From Candidatus Bathyarchaeota archaeon (GTDB lineage: Archaea > Thermoproteota > Bathyarchaeia > Bathyarchaeales > Bathycorpusculaceae): a stretch of 64,000 nucleotides of DNA. The stretch spans positions 1,120,001-1,184,000 of the forward strand of contig OY970340.1 of NCBI GenBank assembly GCA_963717465.1. The letters run 5' to 3'. The position numbers and the translations under genes are program-made. Shown here in pieces: positions 8,917 to 18,388 of this stretch. The number at the start of each line of letters is the position of its first letter. Positions within the stretch are counted from its first letter, which is position 1. Under the pieces are notes generated by a model. The model ran no database searches and was not told the DNA's origin. It worked only from the letters and a program-made list of their open reading frames with translations.

Positions 8917-11152
8917 GCCAATGTTAAAAATAATTTTCTAGATATAGGTACAGGAACTAGTAGTAGTTGTTCATTGGAACTAGGAGTAGTTTACTTAGGT
9001 TATAGGCAAAGATGCGTGCAAGGGATTAGAAAAACTCACTAATCATGCAGATAATATCGGGACAAGGCGAGGCGCCACCCAAGTTTTGGTCTACTGTTTA
9101 GCCGTGAAAACACGTTAGAGCGCTTATTGCAAAGTCTTTAATAGTTCTTCTTCTCCTCAAAAGGGCTGAACGGTGGTTTATTCACATGAAGGGGTTACGT
9201 GTTTTAGCAGCATTGGTTTGCGCACTTTTTGTTTTCAGTTTAGTTTTGATTCCGTTAACGAATGCTGACTGGATAATGTTTCGCGGAGACCTGTCTCGCA
9301 ATGGTGTAGGAACAGGTAATCCGGCGCTTACGCCCACGCTACTCTGGAATTATACCACCGGCGGCATTGTTTTTTCGTCTCCTGCTGTTATAGATGGTGT
9401 AGTCTATGTGGGTTCACTGGACGGTAACGTTTATGCTTTAAACGCTGCTAGCGGCATCCAACTTTGGAATTATACTACCGGCAACTATGTTGAGTCATCT
9501 TACACTGTTTTAGGTATTAGCACGCTTGCAGACTCCCATGGGGGTCCTAGTGAATCGGTTTATTCGTCTCCTGCTGTTGTTGGTGGTGTGGTCTATGTGG
9601 GTTCACAGGATGGTAATGTTTATGCTTTGAACGATACTAGCGGCATCCGAGTTTGGAATTATACTACCGGCGGAGGGATTTGGTCATCTCCTGCGGTTGT
9701 CAACAACGTGGTCTACGTGGGCTCCGGTGACGACAATGTTTATGCTTTGAACTCTACCAACGGTGCCCAACTTTGGAATTACACAACTGGCAATTTTGTT
9801 GATTCGTCTCCTGCTGTTGTCAACGGCGCAGTCTACATAGGCTCCGATGACGGTAACGTTTATGCTTTGAACTCTACCAACGGTGCCCAACTTTGGAATT
9901 ACACAACCGGCGACTATGTTAGGTCGTCTCCTGCTGTTGTTGGTGGTGTGGTCTATGTGGGTTCATACGACGATAAAGTTTATGCTTTGAACGCTACTAC
10001 CGGCACCCAACTCTGGAATTACAGCACCGGCAGCGCGGTTTATTCGTCTCCTGCTGTCGACGATGGAGTCATCTACATAGGCTCAGAAGATGGTAATTTT
10101 TATGCTTTGAATGCTACCATTGGTAGCCAACTTTGGAATTACACCACCGAGGGCGGGATTGAGTCGTCTCCTGCGGTTGTCAACAACGTGGTCTACGTCG
10201 GCTCCGATGACGGTAACGTTTATGCTTTAAACGTTGCTACCGGCGCTAAACTTTGGAATTACACCACCACCGCCGATGTTGAGTCGTCTCCTGCGGTTGT
10301 CAACAACGTGGTCTACGTCGGCTCCGATGACGGTAACGTTTATGCTTTGGGTAGTTCTTCAACGCCAACTCCAACGCCCACTCCAACTTTGTCGCCGGCA
10401 GGTACAGCAGCATTTGTTTTCAGTCCACTCGACTGGGCCATAGTTGTAGTTGTCATCGCTATCATAATGTTACTTTTAATATTCCTTCTATTGTTCAGAC
10501 GCGGCTGCAAGCTTACGGTGACGGTGCAAGATGCGGAAACGCTCTCGCCGATTTCAGGAGCAACGGTTTCAGCTAGTGGTCCGAAATCTTTGGCAGGTAC
10601 TACTGGAAGCAATGGACAAGCTGTTTTTAGTAACGTGAAAAAAGGCGATTATTCAATCATAGCCAGCGCCACAGGATACAACACTTCAATGCCAGCATCC
10701 GTTTCAGTGAAAAATAAAACTGATTACGTAATTAAGCTGAGCCAAATGGTGCCCAAGACCAAAGAAACCTAAACAAAGTGAAAGCATACAATCTCCCTTT
10801 TTTAAGTGTCTTTAAAGGCACTGAACTGACTTGTAAACTAATTTCGGTGTTTTGCTCAAGCCGCTGATATTGATGTTTTTGTGTATTTTGTTGTGACTAA
10901 TTGCTTGATCAACAGCGCGTGCGGAGGAGAAGTGCATAGTCCGAATATGTTTCTAAAAAGGAACAAGAAAATTCGGAGACACTATGTTTTAACAAAACCT
11001 ATAATGCCTAAAAATAGCGAGATAAGGCCTGGTTTTTTTACTAAATGTAAGGCGTACTAAGCGGAAAAAACGTGATAAACCTAAACAAACGCCAATGTTA
11101 AAATAATTTTCACGATATAGGAGGAACTAGTTGTGGTTGTTTAGTAGAACTA
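8917..11152 (+). repeat. Pair of ~60 bp imperfect direct repeats (8917-8982 and 11091-11152) flanking the PQQ-propeller gene
   Basis: GCCAATGTTAAAA(A)TAATTTTC..GATATAGG...GGAACTAG..GT.GTTGTT...GAACTA occurs on both sides. Confidence 0.7.
9186..10772 (+). CDS. PQQ-binding-like (BamB-type) beta-propeller surface protein with signal peptide, P/T linker, TM helix and C-terminal carboxypeptidase-regulatory-like domain
   Basis: Eight SSPAV..GVVY.GS.DG.VYALN...G..LWNYTT repeats; PTPTPT linker; hydrophobic WAIVVVVIAIIMLLLIFLLLF. Confidence 0.9.
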   Translation: MKGLRVLAALVCALFVFSLVLIPLTNADWIMFRGDLSRNGVGTGNPALTPTLLWNYTTGGIVFSSPAVIDGVVYVGSLDGNVYALNAASGIQLWNYTTGNYVESSYTVLGISTLADSHGGPSESVYSSPAVVGGVVYVGSQDGNVYALNDTSGIRVWNYTTGGGIWSSPAVVNNVVYVGSGDDNVYALNSTNGAQLWNYTTGNFVDSSPAVVNGAVYIGSDDGNVYALNSTNGAQLWNYTTGDYVRSSPAVVGGVVYVGSYDDKVYALNATTGTQLWNYSTGSAVYSSPAVDDGVIYIGSEDGNFYALNATIGSQLWNYTTEGGIESSPAVVNNVVYVGSDDGNVYALNVATGAKLWNYTTTADVESSPAVVNNVVYVGSDDGNVYALGSSSTPTPTPTPTLSPAGTAAFVFSPLDWAIVVVVIAIIMLLLIFLLLFRRGCKLTVTVQDAETLSPISGATVSASGPKSLAGTTGSNGQAVFSNVKKGDYSIIASATGYNTSMPASVSVKNKTDYVIKLSQMVPKTKET

Positions 11153-11690: not shown

Positions 11691-12806
11691 TTATTCCATT
11701 GCACTCATTGGGTGCACGGATAGCTTAGGCATCTCTGCGAGAGCGCCTGGTGGCATGATGTTTGGATATGGTTTCCAGCATCGGATCGAGGTTGATCCCA
11801 GTCCGTTAGTTAGCTTCTTTTTTCTGCCGTCTTTGTAAGTAAAGGTACCTTCGAGCTTATCCCAGTCCAATGCTAAAACTGGAGTATCTGGCACTTGTCC
11901 AGTGCTGCCTGCCAACATACCGCCAGTTACATTTGTGTCAAACTCTAAAACTCCAGTGTCACATTCTGCGACTATTTTGTAATGCGTTGGAACGAAAATT
12001 CCAGCTTGGCGAAGATATGCCCATTCACTGTGTATTATGTCAAATTTAACAACTGGGAAGTACTGTTTCTCATCGACTAAGTAAAGTGACATGTCTTTGT
12101 GGTTGCCGTACTTGAATTCGTACATGCTACCGAAGACTTCATCAAAGTGGAACCACATCCAGTCCTCCCATCCTCCTATTTCCGCGGGGCTTGTATCTAA
12201 TGCGATATATCGTTCTCGGACGCCTTTGCCTTTAAAGTTCACCTTTTTCCCTTTGAGAGTAAATGTGCCTTCAATGGTTCCTGCCCAAAAGTATCCATAG
12301 GCAATGCTGTGAGTTGTAAGCACAGATGGCTTCTCATTTGGTCTCCCGTACCAAGTTGGATATCCTGCACCTTTGTGAATAAAGTCAACTTTCAGCTCGC
12401 TTTTCTTGTCCTCCACATTGTAGTGCCATGTGTGGTCGTCTTTGCATTTGAGATGAAAATCTCCACAATCAATTGCGACCTCATTGGCTGACTTCTTAAT
12501 CGTGAGAGTGCCTCCCGGATAAATAGTCCGGGCTATCGGCGATGTTGGAAAGTCGGCAACCTTGTATATTGATCCAGGTAATTGAGCAACCGTTCCTTTG
12601 TCCGAGGTAACTCTTAGCATGAACATGTCTATCTTCTCCAACTTTAAGGACATCGGTGTTACTCCAAGCCGATACTGTTTGCCATCTTCTCCGAAGACAA
12701 CTGCATCAATCATCCAATCCAAAAAACCTGCCTGGGCGCCCTCAGGAATTCCTGCTCCTTCTACATCTAATGTAACTTCCGGATTTGATACTTTCACCGT
12801 ATTCAC
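11691..12806 (-). CDS. Hypothetical protein, likely AttH/tocopherol-cyclase/lipocalin-like double beta-barrel
   Basis: Beta-rich sequence with GTIEGTFTLKGKKVNFKGKGVRER and GWEDWMWFHF; GGAGGTG RBS; directly downstream of the molybdoenzyme. Confidence 0.55.
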   Translation of the reverse strand: MNTVKVSNPEVTLDVEGAGIPEGAQAGFLDWMIDAVVFGEDGKQYRLGVTPMSLKLEKIDMFMLRVTSDKGTVAQLPGSIYKVADFPTSPIARTIYPGGTLTIKKSANEVAIDCGDFHLKCKDDHTWHYNVEDKKSELKVDFIHKGAGYPTWYGRPNEKPSVLTTHSIAYGYFWAGTIEGTFTLKGKKVNFKGKGVRERYIALDTSPAEIGGWEDWMWFHFDEVFGSMYEFKYGNHKDMSLYLVDEKQYFPVVKFDIIHSEWAYLRQAGIFVPTHYKIVAECDTGVLEFDTNVTGGMLAGSTGQVPDTPVLALDWDKLEGTFTYKDGRKKKLTNGLGSTSIRCWKPYPNIMPPGALAEMPKLSVHPMSAME

Positions 12807-12847
12807 CTCCTTTGAAAATTAAAAAAAAGAGAACTAAAAAAAGGACC

Positions 12848-15160
12848 TTATGGTCCTGCGTGTCCTGTGTTTGTTGGGTATACTTTAGCGAGAAGGGATT
12901 TGAAGTTACAGGCTCCTAGTTCTGGGCTAAGCTGTTCCGGGTCGTCTGGCACTGTGGCATTGATGTTCCAGTCTGTCCATCCATACAGTGTTGGTTCCTC
13001 AGCTGGTAGCTCTGGACGCCACCAACCGTGTTCAGGAGAAACAATCTTTGGATTAACACCGAAATCATACCGTACCTGCTGCATGCATCTGCCAACAGGA
13101 GTCTCAATCCAGACCCATTCGCCATCTCCAATGCCCATGTTGCGGGCGGTCAATGGATGCATCTTAACTCGCGGGAATGGACGTAGATGTCTCATTAAGC
13201 TGAGATGTCGATGCTCGCCATGTTGAGCTTCTTGGAATCTTGCTCCACTGCACATAATCAACGGATAGTCCTTAGCAATATCAGGCGCCGCAATCGGCGT
13301 CCAAGGATTCTCAGTGTAATACGGCAATGGATCATATCTTAGCTTTTCTAGAATGGTTGAGTAGAGCGCGACTTTGCCTTCAGGTGTTCCAAATCTTCTC
13401 ATCAATCCAGTCCCTGGATCAATTTCCTCGTACTTCTTGTATCTTGGCTCGTATGGTGGTACACCTTTCCATTGCTTTATGACTTTTTCACGAGTCCAGC
13501 CTGATCCCTCATAGAACATGTCCTGAAGTTCTTCTAGAGTCTTCCATGGCCAAGCGGTTTTGAGTTTTTCCTCGCCGACTACACCTACAGCAAGATGTCG
13601 GTATATTATGCTGTCATCCTCTAGATCCCACAGGCCAGGTATTTTCATTGGTAACGCGCGGTCACCTGCAATTTCAAACTCGACTTGTCCCTGAGTTGAA
13701 ACAGATCCGTAACCTGATGGTCTCTCAAATTGGCTGGTGCCTGGTAACACGTAGTCTGCCAGCATTCCTTCAGGAGTCATCTGAGCACATTCAATGTAAA
13801 CGAAGAGTTCAAGCTTCTTTAGAGCCTCATACACTTTTTTGATGTTGGGGTAGCATCTCATCGGGCCAATTTCACCAGAAATCATTGCCTTGATCGGATA
13901 GGGTTTTCCTGTTATAATTGCTTCCATTGTAGCTGGAAAATTAGGACCCCTTGTTCCACCAGATGTGCTCTGTCTCCAATATCCTTTGTCTGCACTTGCC
14001 CCTAACAGATGAGGCGTAATATTGGCGTTTTCAGCTCTATAATTCTGGATTCCTAACTGTTTTGCCATTTGTTCACGGTTGGCAATCTTTGCTAATGAAG
14101 CTGTTAATTGAACAGCAGTGTTGAAGTTTGGTTTTGCATGTAGGTATTCTCCGCCTTCTACGTCGATGTTTCCTGTTAAAGCAGGTAGCATGTATTTGGA
14201 TCGGACGTTGCTCATAGAGTTTCTGCCTCCATTTTCTATGGCGTAACCGTATGGGAACGTGCAGGGATTGTTTTTAACTATCCACCTGGCTGCTTCTCTG
14301 ATTTTTTCGGCTGGAATCCATGTGATTTCTGCAGCTTTCTCAGGTGTATACTGCTTAACGCGTTCTTTGAGCTTATCAAATCCAAAACACCATTTCTCCA
14401 CAAACTCGTGATCGTATAGGTCCTCTTCAATGAGAACGTTCATTATTGCCATAATCAGCGCAGTGTCAGTTCCTGGTCTAATCGCCAACCACATTTCTGA
14501 GTTCCTAGTAGTCTCTGTGAACCTTGGGTCGACGTTAAGCATTTTCGCGCCACCTTCCACTCCTGAAACAAATCCCGGCCATGAATACGTCCAGGATTCA
14601 CTTGGGTTTGTGCCGATCGTAAAGATGCCTTTGGTCTTGCCTGGAATTATGTTCGCATATGTTAATCCCACGCCATAGCCTAACCCTAAGGCTACAAACG
14701 TGGGGCCTGCTCAAAACTGAGCTGCAGCAGAGCCAAAGTTGGGGCTACCTATTGCCACATGGAAAGCGGCCAGTCCGATACCTAAGCCACAAGATCGGCC
14801 GGTGCCATGGAAACCACATACTGTTTCATAGCCATATTTTTCCCCTAATTCCTTTACCTTGGAGGATATTTCGCTGTATGCTTGCTCCCAGGATATTTTC
14901 TGCCATTTGCCTTCGCCGCGTTTGCCAATGCGCTTCGTTGGGTACATTGGCCTGTCCTTGTGGTAAATGTACTCTACAGAATACTTCCATTTCTGACAGT
15001 ACGGCCCAGGATTAAATGGGCTTTCCCAGTCAGGTTCAACTTTAACGATTTTACCGTTCTCAACAAATTCAAGCAACTGACAAGAACCAGTACTGCAAAA
15101 ACCGCAAATGCACCTGTGCACTCCATCGTAGCTTTTTGGGTCTTCAATTTCACTCATCAA
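12848..15160 (-). CDS. Mo/W-bisPGD oxidoreductase of the acetylene hydratase-like clade, 770 aa when read through the in-frame TGA at 14711-14713 (candidate selenocysteine)
   Basis: ORFs 14711-15160 and 12848-14671 are in frame (39 nt gap reading AGPTFVALGLGYG). N-terminal CxxC-x4-C...CxK 4Fe-4S motif; GSPN...QF*AGP; C-terminal YPLI..GAR...HGEHR...EHGWW.PE domain. Confidence 0.85.
14667..14704 (-). promoter_or_regulatory. Putative bacterial-type SECIS hairpin immediately 3' of the in-frame UGA
   Basis: mRNA UGA-GCAGGC-CCCACG-UUU-GUAGCCU-[UAGGGUU]-AGGCUAU-GG-CGUGGG: 6 bp lower stem, two U-G pairs plus a bulged U, 7 bp upper stem, G-rich loop 22 nt from the UGA. Confidence 0.65.
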
Positions 15161-15207
15161 TTTTATCTCCTATTTTTATATGCTTTACACCATGAAAGCC
15201 AATTACT

Positions 15208-15427: not shown

Positions 15428-17419
15428 TTAAATTTCTCTTCCCAATTTGTGACCAAAATACACAGCGTCGCAAATGTTGTGTGGACTGTTAGCATCTCCG
15501 AGACGGAAGAGGTTGCTGTTTTCCTTCCATCCTTGCTCTCTCAATTGCCAGAACAGCGTGTCGTTTGGCTGTTTTGATGTACAGAGTACAAATGTATCAG
15601 CTTCTACTTCAAACATTTCATGGTTAAAGCCGTTCATGAAACCGCCCTTATTCCCATTAATATATGTAAGCAGTGACATTGGACTGAACTTTACTCCTTT
15701 TGACATAGGACGCTCGTACATTTGAGCAAATTGCAAAGTCATGAACGTATCATTGCCGCCAATAAAGTGCCCCGCTGCCCTGATGTCAACAGTTTTTCCT
15801 GCATCAGCCAACATTTCAGCAAGACCTAAACCTTCATCATAACCAATTTGATCATAAAGTATTATTCTGGGACCAAGTTTGTTCATATCAACTTTGCCTG
15901 AGAGTATGTCTTCCCCGTTTACTACGTTTGGTTGATCCCAACCCTCTATGGCACAATATACGCCTGCATTGTCACCATCACGTTTAGGCTCTGCTCCAGT
16001 AGCAACTACCATCACATCAGGATTTATGCTTTTAACAAGTTCAAGTGTAACTTCCTTATTGAGGACAATCTTAACTCCTAACTTGTCACACTGTAACTTT
16101 AGCCATCTCTTGAAGCCATCATATTCCTGTCGTACAGGCAGTTTCATTGCTAAATTAATGGCCCCGCCGACGTCATTTGACTTTTCGTAAATAGTAACCT
16201 CATGACCCCTTGTTGTTGCGATTCTTGCGAATTCCATGCCACACGGACCAGCACCGGCAACCAAAATGTTCTTTCTCTTTGCAGCAGGCATAAGCGTTCC
16301 TATTCCCCAGTATTTCTCTTCGCCGACCGTTGGATTTACAGTGCACATCCTGGCACCAGTTTTCATGCAGCCTTCATTTTCATAAATGCATGGCCTTATG
16401 TCATCTAATCTTCCTGCCTTGGCTTTATTTGCAAATTCAGGATCAGCTATTTGACCCCTGCAAACGCCGATCCAGTCAGCTTTGCCTTCAGCTAAGATTT
16501 TTTCAGCGAATACTGGATCGTTAATTCTCCCTATGCAGCCTATAGGTATTTTCTTTACAACTTCTTTTACAGCTTCAACTCCGTACAGTTGGTAGCCAGG
16601 CTCCATGTACAGTGGAGCAACTATTACGTTTAGCCCTGAGGGTTCGATTGCTATGTCTATGTCCAAAGCATCAACCTTGTCTTCCAGTTTCTTTGAAATT
16701 TCTGCTCCATCCATAGGTCCTATCCCACCAGGAATAAATTCATCAACACACAGCCTGGTAATGACTGCCATGTCACTGTTAACGCCTTCCCTGCATCTTT
16801 TAATTGCTTCGTAAAGATACCTTAATCGATTATCTAAGCTTCCACCCCACTTGTCTTTTCGCCTATTCGTTAAGGGAGACATGAAATTGTGCACCATGCC
16901 CCCATGATCATGAATTTCGATGCCATCAAACCCTGCTTTCGCAGCGTTCTGTGAAACCAATCTGAAACCGTCAAGTGTCGATTCAATTTGCTCATCAGTC
17001 ATCATTGCATTTGAGACCCTGGGATCTTCTGGGTCTACAGTTCTTGAAGGACCCCATCTACCCATCCAAACCCCACTAAGTCCTATTTGGGCGAAAATTT
17101 TTGTACCAGTGCCTGCATCGTGAACCATATCAACTATTCTTTTCAGTGCTGGAACTATTTCTGGCAATGTCCCGCGTGGATATGCAGCAAAACGAGAGGT
17201 GCTGGGACGCCCGTTTTCAAATGGATAACATGAAATGAATCCATAACATATCAGCCCACAGCCACCTTTCGCTCTTTCAGCCTGATAGTACGCCAAATGT
17301 TCTGTTGGTATGCCGTCTTGTATATGTGCATTTGCGTGGCCGGATAACATAATTCTATTAGGAATTGTTACGGGCCCCATTTTCAGCGGAGAAAAAAGAT
17401 ACTTAAATTTTACACTCAA
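15428..17419 (-). CDS. Old Yellow Enzyme-family NADH:flavin oxidoreductase with Fe-S and FAD domains (2,4-dienoyl-CoA reductase/BaiCD/TMADH-like)
   Basis: LFSPLKMG..TIPNRI, AGFDGIEIH, NRRKDKWGGSLDNRLR, C..ENEGC...CTVNP, VAGAGPCG. Confidence 0.9.
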   Translation of the reverse strand: MSVKFKYLFSPLKMGPVTIPNRIMLSGHANAHIQDGIPTEHLAYYQAERAKGGCGLICYGFISCYPFENGRPSTSRFAAYPRGTLPEIVPALKRIVDMVHDAGTGTKIFAQIGLSGVWMGRWGPSRTVDPEDPRVSNAMMTDEQIESTLDGFRLVSQNAAKAGFDGIEIHDHGGMVHNFMSPLTNRRKDKWGGSLDNRLRYLYEAIKRCREGVNSDMAVITRLCVDEFIPGGIGPMDGAEISKKLEDKVDALDIDIAIEPSGLNVIVAPLYMEPGYQLYGVEAVKEVVKKIPIGCIGRINDPVFAEKILAEGKADWIGVCRGQIADPEFANKAKAGRLDDIRPCIYENEGCMKTGARMCTVNPTVGEEKYWGIGTLMPAAKRKNILVAGAGPCGMEFARIATTRGHEVTIYEKSNDVGGAINLAMKLPVRQEYDGFKRWLKLQCDKLGVKIVLNKEVTLELVKSINPDVMVVATGAEPKRDGDNAGVYCAIEGWDQPNVVNGEDILSGKVDMNKLGPRIILYDQIGYDEGLGLAEMLADAGKTVDIRAAGHFIGGNDTFMTLQFAQMYERPMSKGVKFSPMSLLTYINGNKGGFMNGFNHEMFEVEADTFVLCTSKQPNDTLFWQLREQGWKENSNLFRLGDANSPHNICDAVYFGHKLGREI

Positions 17420-17797: not shown

Positions 17798-18388
17798 TTA
17801 TTTTTCGGTCAGCTGTCTCTTACTAGGAGGATGCAATGGTTTTTTAGGCTGAAGTAGTATGGACTCCAAGTTTCGCAATGAGAACGGTGTCGGAAATTTG
17901 GTGCTCGTATGAAAAATGAAGCTACTCATGTCAATAGATGGATGAGATGGAAATTCTTCTTTGGATTTCTTAGCTAGTTCCAAGTAGTCATCATAACTCT
18001 TATGTGCAGATATAACAACCCAATTTACTCCCCACGCATCTTGCTCTTGCAAGATACCCAGTATTTCTGGGTGCCTCTGAGATAATTCTTTAACTTCTTC
18101 GGCTTGCTTTTGTGTTATCACTTCAGTAGTTTTGGCAAAAGAAAATATGATTAATTCTATTCCTATTTTATGGAGGTCAGGTATTAACGTGTACTCTTTT
18201 ATATAACCCTCGTGCTCTATCTTTCTTTTTCTTCTAGATATTGTTGAGTTGCTTATACCCAAATTCTTAGCAATCACTCTATCGCTTCTACAACCCAACT
18301 TCATCAGAGCAAACAGAATTCTTAAGTCCATTTGCTCACTTTTATCTTGCTTACCCATAAACCCCACAATAATAGGGGGAGTACTCAA
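17798..18388 (-). CDS. Lrp/AsnC-family transcriptional regulator
   Basis: RSDRVIAKNLGISNSTISRRKRKIEHEGYIKEYTLIPDLHKIG wHTH. Confidence 0.85.
   Translation of the reverse strand: MSTPPIIVGFMGKQDKSEQMDLRILFALMKLGCRSDRVIAKNLGISNSTISRRKRKIEHEGYIKEYTLIPDLHKIGIELIIFSFAKTTEVITQKQAEEVKELSQRHPEILGILQEQDAWGVNWVVISAHKSYDDYLELAKKSKEEFPSHPSIDMSSFIFHTSTKFPTPFSLRNLESILLQPKKPLHPPSKRQLTEK

Follow-up and report, generated by a model that had tools for sequence, protein, structure and literature searches.

How does an archaeon distinguish a UGA that is to be read as selenocysteine (Sec) from one that ends a protein? The question is raised by a gene in a 64,000-nucleotide stretch of DNA from a Candidatus Bathyarchaeota archaeon (GenBank assembly GCA_963717465.1, contig OY970340.1, positions 1,120,001 to 1,184,000 of the forward strand; hereafter the window). 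The gene encodes a predicted molybdenum- or tungsten-dependent (Mo/W) enzyme, referred to here as the selenoenzyme, whose reading frame contains a TGA. A first-pass annotation of the window had proposed a selenoenzyme with a bacterial-style selenocysteine insertion sequence (SECIS), explained either by bacterial-type Sec decoding in an archaeon or by a transferred gene that kept its signal. Our analysis retains the archaeal selenoenzyme with a hairpin at the place of a bacterial SECIS and sets aside both explanations: UGA 150 is probably recoded by a UGA-proximal, SECIS-like hairpin that lies inside the open reading frame (ORF) and is served by Sec machinery of the archaeal type.

We first describe the gene itself. 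On the minus strand, the ORF opens with a TTG at 15160 directly followed by an ATG, and ends in a TAA at the far end; the ATG at 15157-15155, immediately 3' of the TTG, is the likely start. As annotated, two ORFs join in frame across a single TGA at 14713..14711, codon 150, to read GSPNFGSAAAQF-U-AGPTF, and no other in-frame TGA occurs in the gene. Elsewhere in the window TGA is a normal stop, ending 9 of the 37 ORFs of at least 200 aa. The Pfam families Molybdop_Fe4S4, Molybdopterin and Molydop_binding together cover the whole read-through product, and among solved structures acetylene hydratase (2e7z; E 7e-99, residues 17-761) ranks first, ahead of polysulfide/thiosulfate reductase and the formate dehydrogenases. 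In E. coli FdhH (1aa6) the residue opposite U150 is X (Sec140), and in acetylene hydratase it is the ligand Cys, which bears out the earlier assignment of this residue as the Mo/W ligand. The UGA thus forms a Sec/Cys pair, standing opposite a conserved Cys in homologs and the metal-ligand Cys or Sec of the solved enzymes. On these sequence grounds, the locus is very likely a real selenoprotein gene.

The genome contains eleven paralogs of the gene, 42-78% identical, and in every one a single TGA is present, at the metal-ligand codon; eight are otherwise intact over about 770 codons, and three are broken by other stops or split. The broken copies (130832-133136, 2797289-2799575 and 616645-618946) carry TAG or TAA stops or are split, still keep the UGA and the hairpin, and have the look of young pseudogenes within a family that is expanding. 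A more distant paralog (34% identity) carries Cys at the ligand codon. The site itself is covered by public contigs from two sediment runs of another study, with no change at 14711-14713 among the differences listed; this check used assembled contigs rather than raw reads. Four public DNA runs contained 7-10% of the sampled words, in short low-depth contigs, and are uninformative on expression or habitat. That the TGA is a real stop, in a pseudogene, a split gene or a misassembled one, is scarcely credible: the three broken paralogs and the reliance on contigs would allow it, but eleven copies place TGA exactly at the metal-ligand codon, eight of them with no other stop, the Sec machinery is complete (see below), and the contigs of two runs list no change at the site.

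The hairpin described in the first-pass annotation, 38 nt long with a bulged U, starting 6 nt after the UGA and with its loop 22 nt away, was recovered in full at 14704-14667. It comprises 15 bp and one bulged U, with a lower stem CCCACG/CGUGGG, an upper stem of 7 bp and a 7-nt apical loop, UAGGGUU, that begins 22 nt 3' of the UGA. Over 70 nt the fold has a minimum free energy (MFE) of -22.5 kcal/mol (z -2.2), and 5 of 200 shuffles were equally good. For all comparisons, "+9" denotes a fold that starts 6 nt 3' of the Sec codon, and the standard test interval is the 45 nt from +9. After UGA 150 this interval folds at -21.8 kcal/mol, a value as low as that of only 0.02% of 4000 Cys-codon controls.

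The same analysis was extended to the genome. Further Sec genes were taken in part from a codon-usage scan of TGA read-through contexts, giving 16 Sec UGAs for testing: those of the selenoenzyme family, an HdrA-MvhD fusion, a methyltransferase-like gene and SelD. Fifteen of the 16 fold at -15.4 to -26.0 kcal/mol, and in 13 of these 15 the helix starts exactly at +9. The 4000 Cys codons, drawn from long ORFs of the same genome, have a mean of -6.0 (standard deviation 3.2), a 1st percentile of -14.3 and a 0.1 percentile of -17.6 kcal/mol; 442 ordinary TGA stops average -4.9, the lowest being -13.9, with none at -15 or below. When 3999 TGA read-through contexts are ranked by stability, the top 11 are all Sec sites, and the 39 contexts at -15 or lower include 15 Sec sites, the other 24 lying mostly in frames with low or negative coding scores. 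The hairpin co-occurs with Sec UGAs and is absent from Cys codons and real stops. Three unrelated peptides each give a +9 hairpin. In the methyltransferase-like gene it follows the second UGA; the fold after the first is less regular, with a stable hairpin near +30.

Several candidates from the scan were set aside. An 89-aa ORF reading CITU across a TGA (C1:1821617-1821886, plus strand), between the Cys paralog at 1817834-1820059 and one of the eleven Sec-type paralogs (p11), matched no Pfam family, has no hairpin and is probably not a selenoprotein. Other read-through candidates, with CRNU, CU and CASU motifs, likewise lack hairpins.

For the selenoenzyme itself, aligning homologs, as the first pass had suggested, set its TGA against an outside Cys at one codon, but no homolog exceeded 46% identity and no orthologous Sec/Cys pair could be formed. 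The pair comparison was therefore made with HdrA-MvhD, which carries a +9 hairpin after each of U212 and U682. Sec-type orthologs were found in 1 of 80 genomes sampled in the family and in 4 of 60 sampled in the genus, and were compared with 28 Cys-type orthologs at 72-75% identity. The first two Sec-type genes gave -22.6 and -25.8 kcal/mol after U212, and -23.0 and -23.7 after U682. After U212, Sec-type genes range from -22.6 to -27.6 kcal/mol, whereas the 28 Cys-type genes range from -6.6 to -13.2 and have no +9 hairpin, with a near-identical peptide in this region (IEGPKMVDVGRHP in the Cys-type for IEGPRMVEVYRHP in the Sec-type). After U682 the ranges are -22.0 to -24.1 kcal/mol for Sec-type and -7.9 to -19.3 for Cys-type, the latter again without a +9 hairpin. 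The stems hardly vary among the six Sec-type orthologs (85-86% protein identity): the one difference within them is at the final stem base of a single gene, and everything else that differs lies in the apical loop or beyond the hairpin. This Sec/Cys comparison indicates that the hairpin follows the UGA rather than the protein sequence. A Cys-type HdrA-MvhD paralog lies in the same genome at 1502437-1504851. HdrA homologs flagged as having one TGA in five other genomes of the family were rejected as Sec genes, the TGAs being stops that separate tandem genes.

Within the selenoenzyme family, the hairpin is seen at +9 in all 11 paralogs, in most with the loop UAGGAUU. In the paralog at 42% identity the lower stem is CCAACG/CGUUGG, where a C-G pair has become A-U through the synonymous change GUG to GUU. 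In an ungapped alignment, 77% of cells are paired, against at most 48.5% when the 3' partner is slid, and none of 500 shuffles matched the pairing or covariation score. Identity of synonymous codons at conserved amino acids is 0.79-0.85 in the hairpin versus 0.52-0.58 elsewhere in the gene, placing the hairpin among the top 1-3 of 295-533 sliding windows. The hairpin is under selection beyond that on the protein sequence, and its synonymous sites are more telling than its covariation.

These data bear on whether the hairpin could be a roleless by-product of the conserved peptide GPT..LGYGVG, with the UGA decoded without a local signal. The stems do code for conserved residues, covariation among paralogs is limited, and SelD does without a hairpin. 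Set against this, the synonymous sites of the stem show much stronger conservation than those elsewhere in the gene, 28 Cys-type HdrA-MvhD orthologs with nearly the same peptide have no hairpin, and unrelated peptides give +9 hairpins. We give this explanation very little credence.

We then asked which machinery would decode the UGA. The host contig is a single one of 3.05 Mb, and its small-subunit ribosomal RNA (SSU rRNA) matched the archaeal model over its full length, beating the other models of its Rfam clan; together with the 2e7z match and the ligand alignment, this upholds the proposal of an acetylene-hydratase-like selenoenzyme in an archaeon. Of the components that the first pass had suggested looking for, those of an archaeal-type Sec toolkit are present: SelD, SepSecS beside tRNA-Sec, two tRNA-Sec genes and two PSTK-aSelB fusions, the second fusion and second tRNA-Sec forming a cassette of their own. 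M. maripaludis aSelB can be aligned along its length (residues 9-460 of 465) with the SelB part of the fusion, which matches Pfam aSelB_III and whose TIGR00475 match is limited to model positions 2-338. The winged-helix domain of bacterial SelB was not found in the fusions by Pfam, TIGR00475 or the aSelB alignment, and the genome search returned no SelA above cut-off. With SepSecS and PSTK-aSelB in their place, the bacterial-type decoding first proposed is not supported. Mukai et al. (Front Genet 2022, PMC8762117) described PSTK-aSelB fusions in "diverse Bathyarchaeota and one Archaeoglobus", and it is mainly this fusion that marks the host as probably a Bathyarchaeon.

The origin of the gene was assessed through its homologs. 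Searches of 36 genomes of the same genus and of five relatives with Sec in HdrA yielded no selenoenzyme homolog, and among other genomes of the order 1 of 24 has a homolog, Cys-type and 40% identical. In public genome and metagenome contigs, outside homologs reach 46% identity or less. The nearest are bacterial (Dehalococcoidales, Thermoleophilia, Coriobacteriales and Peptococcaceae), and many of the nearest genome matches are uncharacterised Eggerthellaceae homologs at 31-38% identity. The ligand residue is Cys in 81 of 83 outside loci of a first collection and in 75 of the 77 covering loci among 80 fetched in a second; the remaining four are gaps or misalignments, and none of the 83 and 77 loci has a TGA or a hairpin at the ligand codon. 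The Sec form thus appears limited, within reach of these searches, to the expanded family of this organism, and the simplest history would be that a Cys-type gene was acquired, then converted to Sec and then duplicated.

A gene of bacterial origin that retained its bacterial SECIS would account for the bacterial nearest homologs, the absence from 36 genomes of the genus and a geometry that satisfies most rules for bacterial SECIS (bSECIS) elements. It is nevertheless very improbable. The outside homologs are at most 46% identical and Cys-type, with neither TGA nor hairpin; hairpins at the same spacing follow the UGAs of the native, unrelated HdrA-MvhD and methyltransferase-like genes; and the bacterial SelB domain and SelA, which would be needed as readers, were not found. 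The idea of a transferred gene that kept its signal is not supported, on the same evidence.

A distal SECIS, or one in an untranslated region (UTR), was also sought. The 41-nt gap after the gene, earlier described as A/T-rich with no evident SECIS, is indeed T-rich and has no stable fold. In the 3' flanks of nine paralogs, T-tracts occur 10-30 nt past the stop, and no stable local fold was found outside the next genes; downstream neighbours differ between paralogs. HdrA-MvhD 3' flanks of two species, compared by eye and unaligned, showed no obvious similarity. Rfam SECIS families, including the eukaryote-like, Asgard-type SECIS_1, gave no match at E <=5 in 52 kb covering 11 Sec-related loci. 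When 11 Sec genes and their 400-nt flanks were scanned with a home-made pattern for the GAA_A motif of methanogens, 0 hits were obtained, against 0.07 expected in shuffles; the scan had no positive control. On the 5' side, an A/T-rich box (ATATAAAAATAGG) lies about 20-30 nt upstream of the start codon, beside a GGAG (window 15161-15200, minus strand). Its position suggests a leader that is very short or absent, which would therefore leave no space for a 5' UTR SECIS. Like the first pass, which saw no evident SECIS in the gap, we found no UTR SECIS by fold, Rfam or GAA_A scan at the Sec-gene loci.

Several observations weigh against the hairpin as the recoding signal. The covariation that the first pass proposed to look for is partial: the C-G to A-U change preserves the stem, but both partners have changed in no more than 4 of 15 pairs, a count matched by 83 of 500 shuffles, and the paralogs are not independent, so that covariation alone is modest evidence. 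Hairpins of different genes share no clear sequence motif, and a specific binding protein is therefore not implied; aSelB carries no known RNA-binding extension. SelD U18 has no +9 hairpin (-5.4 kcal/mol, the 54th percentile of controls). A longer SelD fold from +14 reaches -34.9 kcal/mol (z -2.4), with Cys-type orthologs at -20 to -31 over the same stretch, and orthologs in four related Sec-using genomes have TGC or TGT at this codon; U18 may reflect other means of read-through, a recent codon change or an error. The hairpin may accordingly not be obligatory, or SelD may rely on something else. We know of no dedicated archaeal SECIS model in Rfam, and without a positive control the GAA_A scan is a weak negative; the distal searches have limited power against an element of unfamiliar type. 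Finally, the G of the loop in the MFE fold falls at positions 3-5, where the bSECIS rule (PMC13188914) asks for the first two, and agreement comes only if the loop is redrawn.

These points could be accommodated if the hairpin were a helper, like the UGA-proximal stem-loop of SEPN1 (PMC2248747), and the true SECIS were distal and of an unrecognised type, in a UTR, elsewhere in the operon or in trans. An aSelB lacking an RNA-binding extension, a SelD UGA with no hairpin, and hairpins alike in geometry with no clear sequence motif would all be in keeping with such a helper. We nonetheless regard this, the main rival to our reading, as unlikely: neither the 3' flanks, nor Rfam, nor the GAA_A scan offered a distal candidate, the downstream neighbours of the paralogs differ, and the unaligned HdrA flanks were not obviously similar by eye.

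For the hairpin, we have good confidence that it is a functional recoding signal, and put slightly better than an even chance on its being the only one. In the mechanism we propose, UGA 150 would be recoded by tRNA-Sec, SerRS, the PSTK-aSelB fusion, SepSecS and SelD, with the hairpin inside the ORF distinguishing the Sec UGA from a stop. With the UGA in the A site, the foot of the hairpin would sit at the mRNA entry channel, and its upper part might recruit or position aSelB-GTP-Sec-tRNA through some contact or adaptor. Alternatively, the hairpin might pause the ribosome so that Sec-tRNA outcompetes the release factor. The UGA, its place in the protein, the machinery and the association of hairpins with Sec UGAs are observed here; the necessity and sufficiency of the hairpin, and the identity of its reader, are inferred.

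The neighbourhood of the selenoenzyme gene is summarised, with the other features discussed, in the table below. The upstream neighbour, an old yellow enzyme (OYE)-type flavin domain fused to a reductase domain, resembles enoate or 2,4-dienoyl-CoA reductase and is a possible redox partner or pathway enzyme of the selenoenzyme. Paralogs of this reductase adjoin three other selenoenzyme paralogs. Such pairs thus occur at four loci, in differing orientations, with the reductase at 15428-17419 of the window and at 2380033-2382054, 2799948-2801919 and 1213852-1215874 of the genome; two of the four reductase copies look frameshifted or split. The 371-aa ORF downstream matched no Pfam family, and the genome search found no paralog of it. 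A 528-aa protein with PQQ-like beta-propeller repeats and a carboxypeptidase-regulatory-like domain (window 9186-10772, plus strand) is convergent with the selenoenzyme operon, with no link seen.

Table. Coordinates of the features discussed, in the window (first seven rows) and in the genome (remaining rows).
Feature	Coordinates	Strand	Remarks
Selenoenzyme gene	12848..15160	minus	770 codons, one UGA read through; bis-molybdopterin guanine dinucleotide (bis-MGD) enzyme (Mo/W), predicted member of the acetylene-hydratase / catechol-dehydroxylase-like clade
In-frame UGA, Mo/W-ligand position	14711..14713	minus	codon 150 counting from TTG
SECIS-like hairpin inside ORF	14667..14704	minus	38 nt, first base 6 nt 3' of UGA
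Gap 3' of selenoenzyme stop	12807..12847	minus	41 nt, T-rich, without stable fold or SECIS
371-aa ORF	11691..12806	minus	41 nt downstream of selenoenzyme gene
Upstream neighbour, 663 aa	15428..17419	minus	Pfam Oxidored_FMN + Pyr_redox_2; OYE-type FMN domain fused to FAD/NAD(P) reductase domain
Helix-turn-helix (HTH) regulator, AsnC/Lrp-type	17798..18388	minus	upstream, same strand as selenoenzyme; Pfam HTH_24, HTH_AsnC-type
PSTK-aSelB fusion, 732 aa	C1:952743-954941	plus	
PSTK-aSelB fusion, 730 aa	C1:2827363-2829555	minus	
tRNA-Sec, anticodon UCA	845693-845779	plus	
tRNA-Sec, anticodon UCA	2829638-2829725	minus	
SelD with TGA at codon 18 (HG-U-SCK)	C1:951651-952683	plus	
HdrA-MvhD (FlpD) fusion, U212 + U682	C1:1519922-1522484	minus	U682 in FlpD domain, motif CNWU
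Methyltransferase-like gene, two in-frame UGAs (2823619, 2823439)	C1:about 2822990-2824195	minus	+9 hairpin after second UGA

Taken as a whole, we lean somewhat towards a Bathyarchaeia lineage with a third Sec configuration, in which archaeal/eukaryal biosynthesis, PSTK-aSelB and an in-ORF hairpin would operate with no UTR SECIS, and in which the local signal would have let a horizontally acquired Cys-type Mo/W enzyme, acetylene-hydratase/catechol-dehydroxylase-like, turn to Sec and reach 11 copies. The link between archaeal SECIS and ribosome is an open question, and a UGA-adjacent signal would be easier to dissect: a cassette of the UGA and a 40-nt hairpin can be moved into reporters, and a Sec reporter system exists for Methanococcus maripaludis (PMC13188914). 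If the proposal is true, the domain of life does not dictate where a SECIS lies, with consequences for the kinship of the bacterial, archaeal and eukaryotic systems. To our knowledge, Sec-ligated bis-MGD enzymes otherwise comprise the formate and formylmethanofuran dehydrogenases, and this family would be the first beyond them; it also points to Sec-dependent Mo/W chemistry in sediment archaea. Such archaea are presumed to feed on aromatic or lignin-derived compounds. Annotators should note that gene callers will cut every such gene in two at the UGA. The archaeal selenoproteome is likewise widened, the family being missing from the selenoprotein list of a 2026 review as far as its available text goes (PMC13188914). 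That text counts 11 archaeal selenoprotein families and places Sec only in Methanococcales, Methanopyrales and Asgard archaea; neither "Bathyarchae" nor "acetylene" occurs in it as a string (PMC13188914).

As an enzyme, the selenoenzyme is most likely a cytoplasmic bis-MGD Mo/W protein with an N-terminal [4Fe-4S] site and Sec in place of the metal-ligating Cys. It resembles the acetylene hydratase of Pelobacter acetylenicus (2e7z) in being cytoplasmic, in its N-terminal iron-sulfur (FeS) motif and in having a ligand residue at the aligned position. It differs in having Sec for Cys and in its FeS motif, here C-G-F-C-S-T-G-S-C (CX2CX4C), where Ser follows the second FeS cysteine in the 2e7z alignment. 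In acetylene hydratase that position is held by the catalytic Asp13, which is needed for hydration. With Ser in its place, acetylene hydratase activity is unlikely. With the Sec formate dehydrogenases (FdhH, FdhA) the enzyme shares Sec as the Mo/W ligand at the aligned position; unlike them, it has Ala instead of the conserved His after Sec (U-A-G-P-T here, X-H-G-P-S in FdhH). No NCBIfam model scored above cut-off, the best being PhsA and Fdh-alpha at about 240 bits against 666-694 (TIGR01591, Fdh-alpha: 240 bits, cut-off 666), and formate dehydrogenase was rejected on both counts. Ala after U and Ser after the second FeS Cys therefore place the enzyme in the acetylene-hydratase-like clade as neither a hydratase nor a formate dehydrogenase. 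The clade and the neighbouring OYE-type reductase, the only two pointers to function, suggest reductive chemistry on aromatic or unsaturated compounds rather than acetylene hydration. Catechol dehydroxylases of the gut Actinobacteria Eggerthella and Gordonibacter are reported to form the bis-MGD clade closest to acetylene hydratase, spread through anaerobes "and even Archaea" (Maini Rekdal et al., eLife 2020, PMC7028382). These use Cys, unlike the selenoenzyme, and the 31-38% identity noted above is to uncharacterised Eggerthellaceae homologs, not to characterised dehydroxylases.

As a recoding system, the arrangement shares with the selenocysteine redefinition element (SRE) of SEPN1 a UGA-proximal stem-loop inside the ORF and machinery of the PSTK, SepSecS and EFSec type. 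The SRE is spaced 6 nt from its UGA. Unlike the hairpin described here, for which no 3' UTR SECIS was found, it acts alongside one, stimulating read-through from just 3' of the Sec UGA (PMC2248747). Methanogen GAA_A and Asgard eukaryote-like SECIS systems likewise use PSTK, SepSecS and aSelB and share the selenoproteins HdrA, MvhD and SelD. Both kinds of element, the GAA_A type being that of Methanococcales and Methanopyrales, are described in 3' UTRs, or in the 5' UTR for M. jannaschii fdhA, at 70-1500 nt from the UGA (PMC9499178, PMC13188914), whereas here the structure is directly 3' of each UGA and no UTR element was found. According to the available part of a 2022 review, aSelB does not bind SECIS and no archaeal SECIS-binding protein is known (PMC9499178). 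In the full-text literature searched, which lies outside subscription journals, no title or abstract opening points to an in-ORF archaeal SECIS.

The published Bathyarchaeota system (PMC8762117) has the same fused PSTK-aSelB ORF adjoining SelD, in keeping with the archaeal SSU rRNA here. The present genome differs in its two cassettes and large client family, neither of which the available text of that paper mentions; the word SECIS is likewise absent from it, so that the signal is not placed there. The nearest parallel for placement is the bSECIS, whose prototype is that of E. coli fdhF and which, like our hairpin, directly follows the Sec UGA inside the ORF, a placement that published work assigns to bacteria alone. 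Under the Zhang and Gladyshev consensus it has a loop of 3-9 nt, an upper stem of 4-16 bp, a UGA-loop distance of 16-37 nt and an MFE of -7.5 kcal/mol or lower (PMC13188914); the loop of 7 nt, upper stem of 7 bp, spacing of 22 nt and -21.8 kcal/mol found here are all within these rules, and GG in the loop and a bulged U are further points of likeness. The host, unlike that of a bSECIS, is an archaeon in which neither SelA nor the winged-helix reader of SelB was found. The hairpin is thus bacterial-SECIS-like in placement and is not a member of the bSECIS family.

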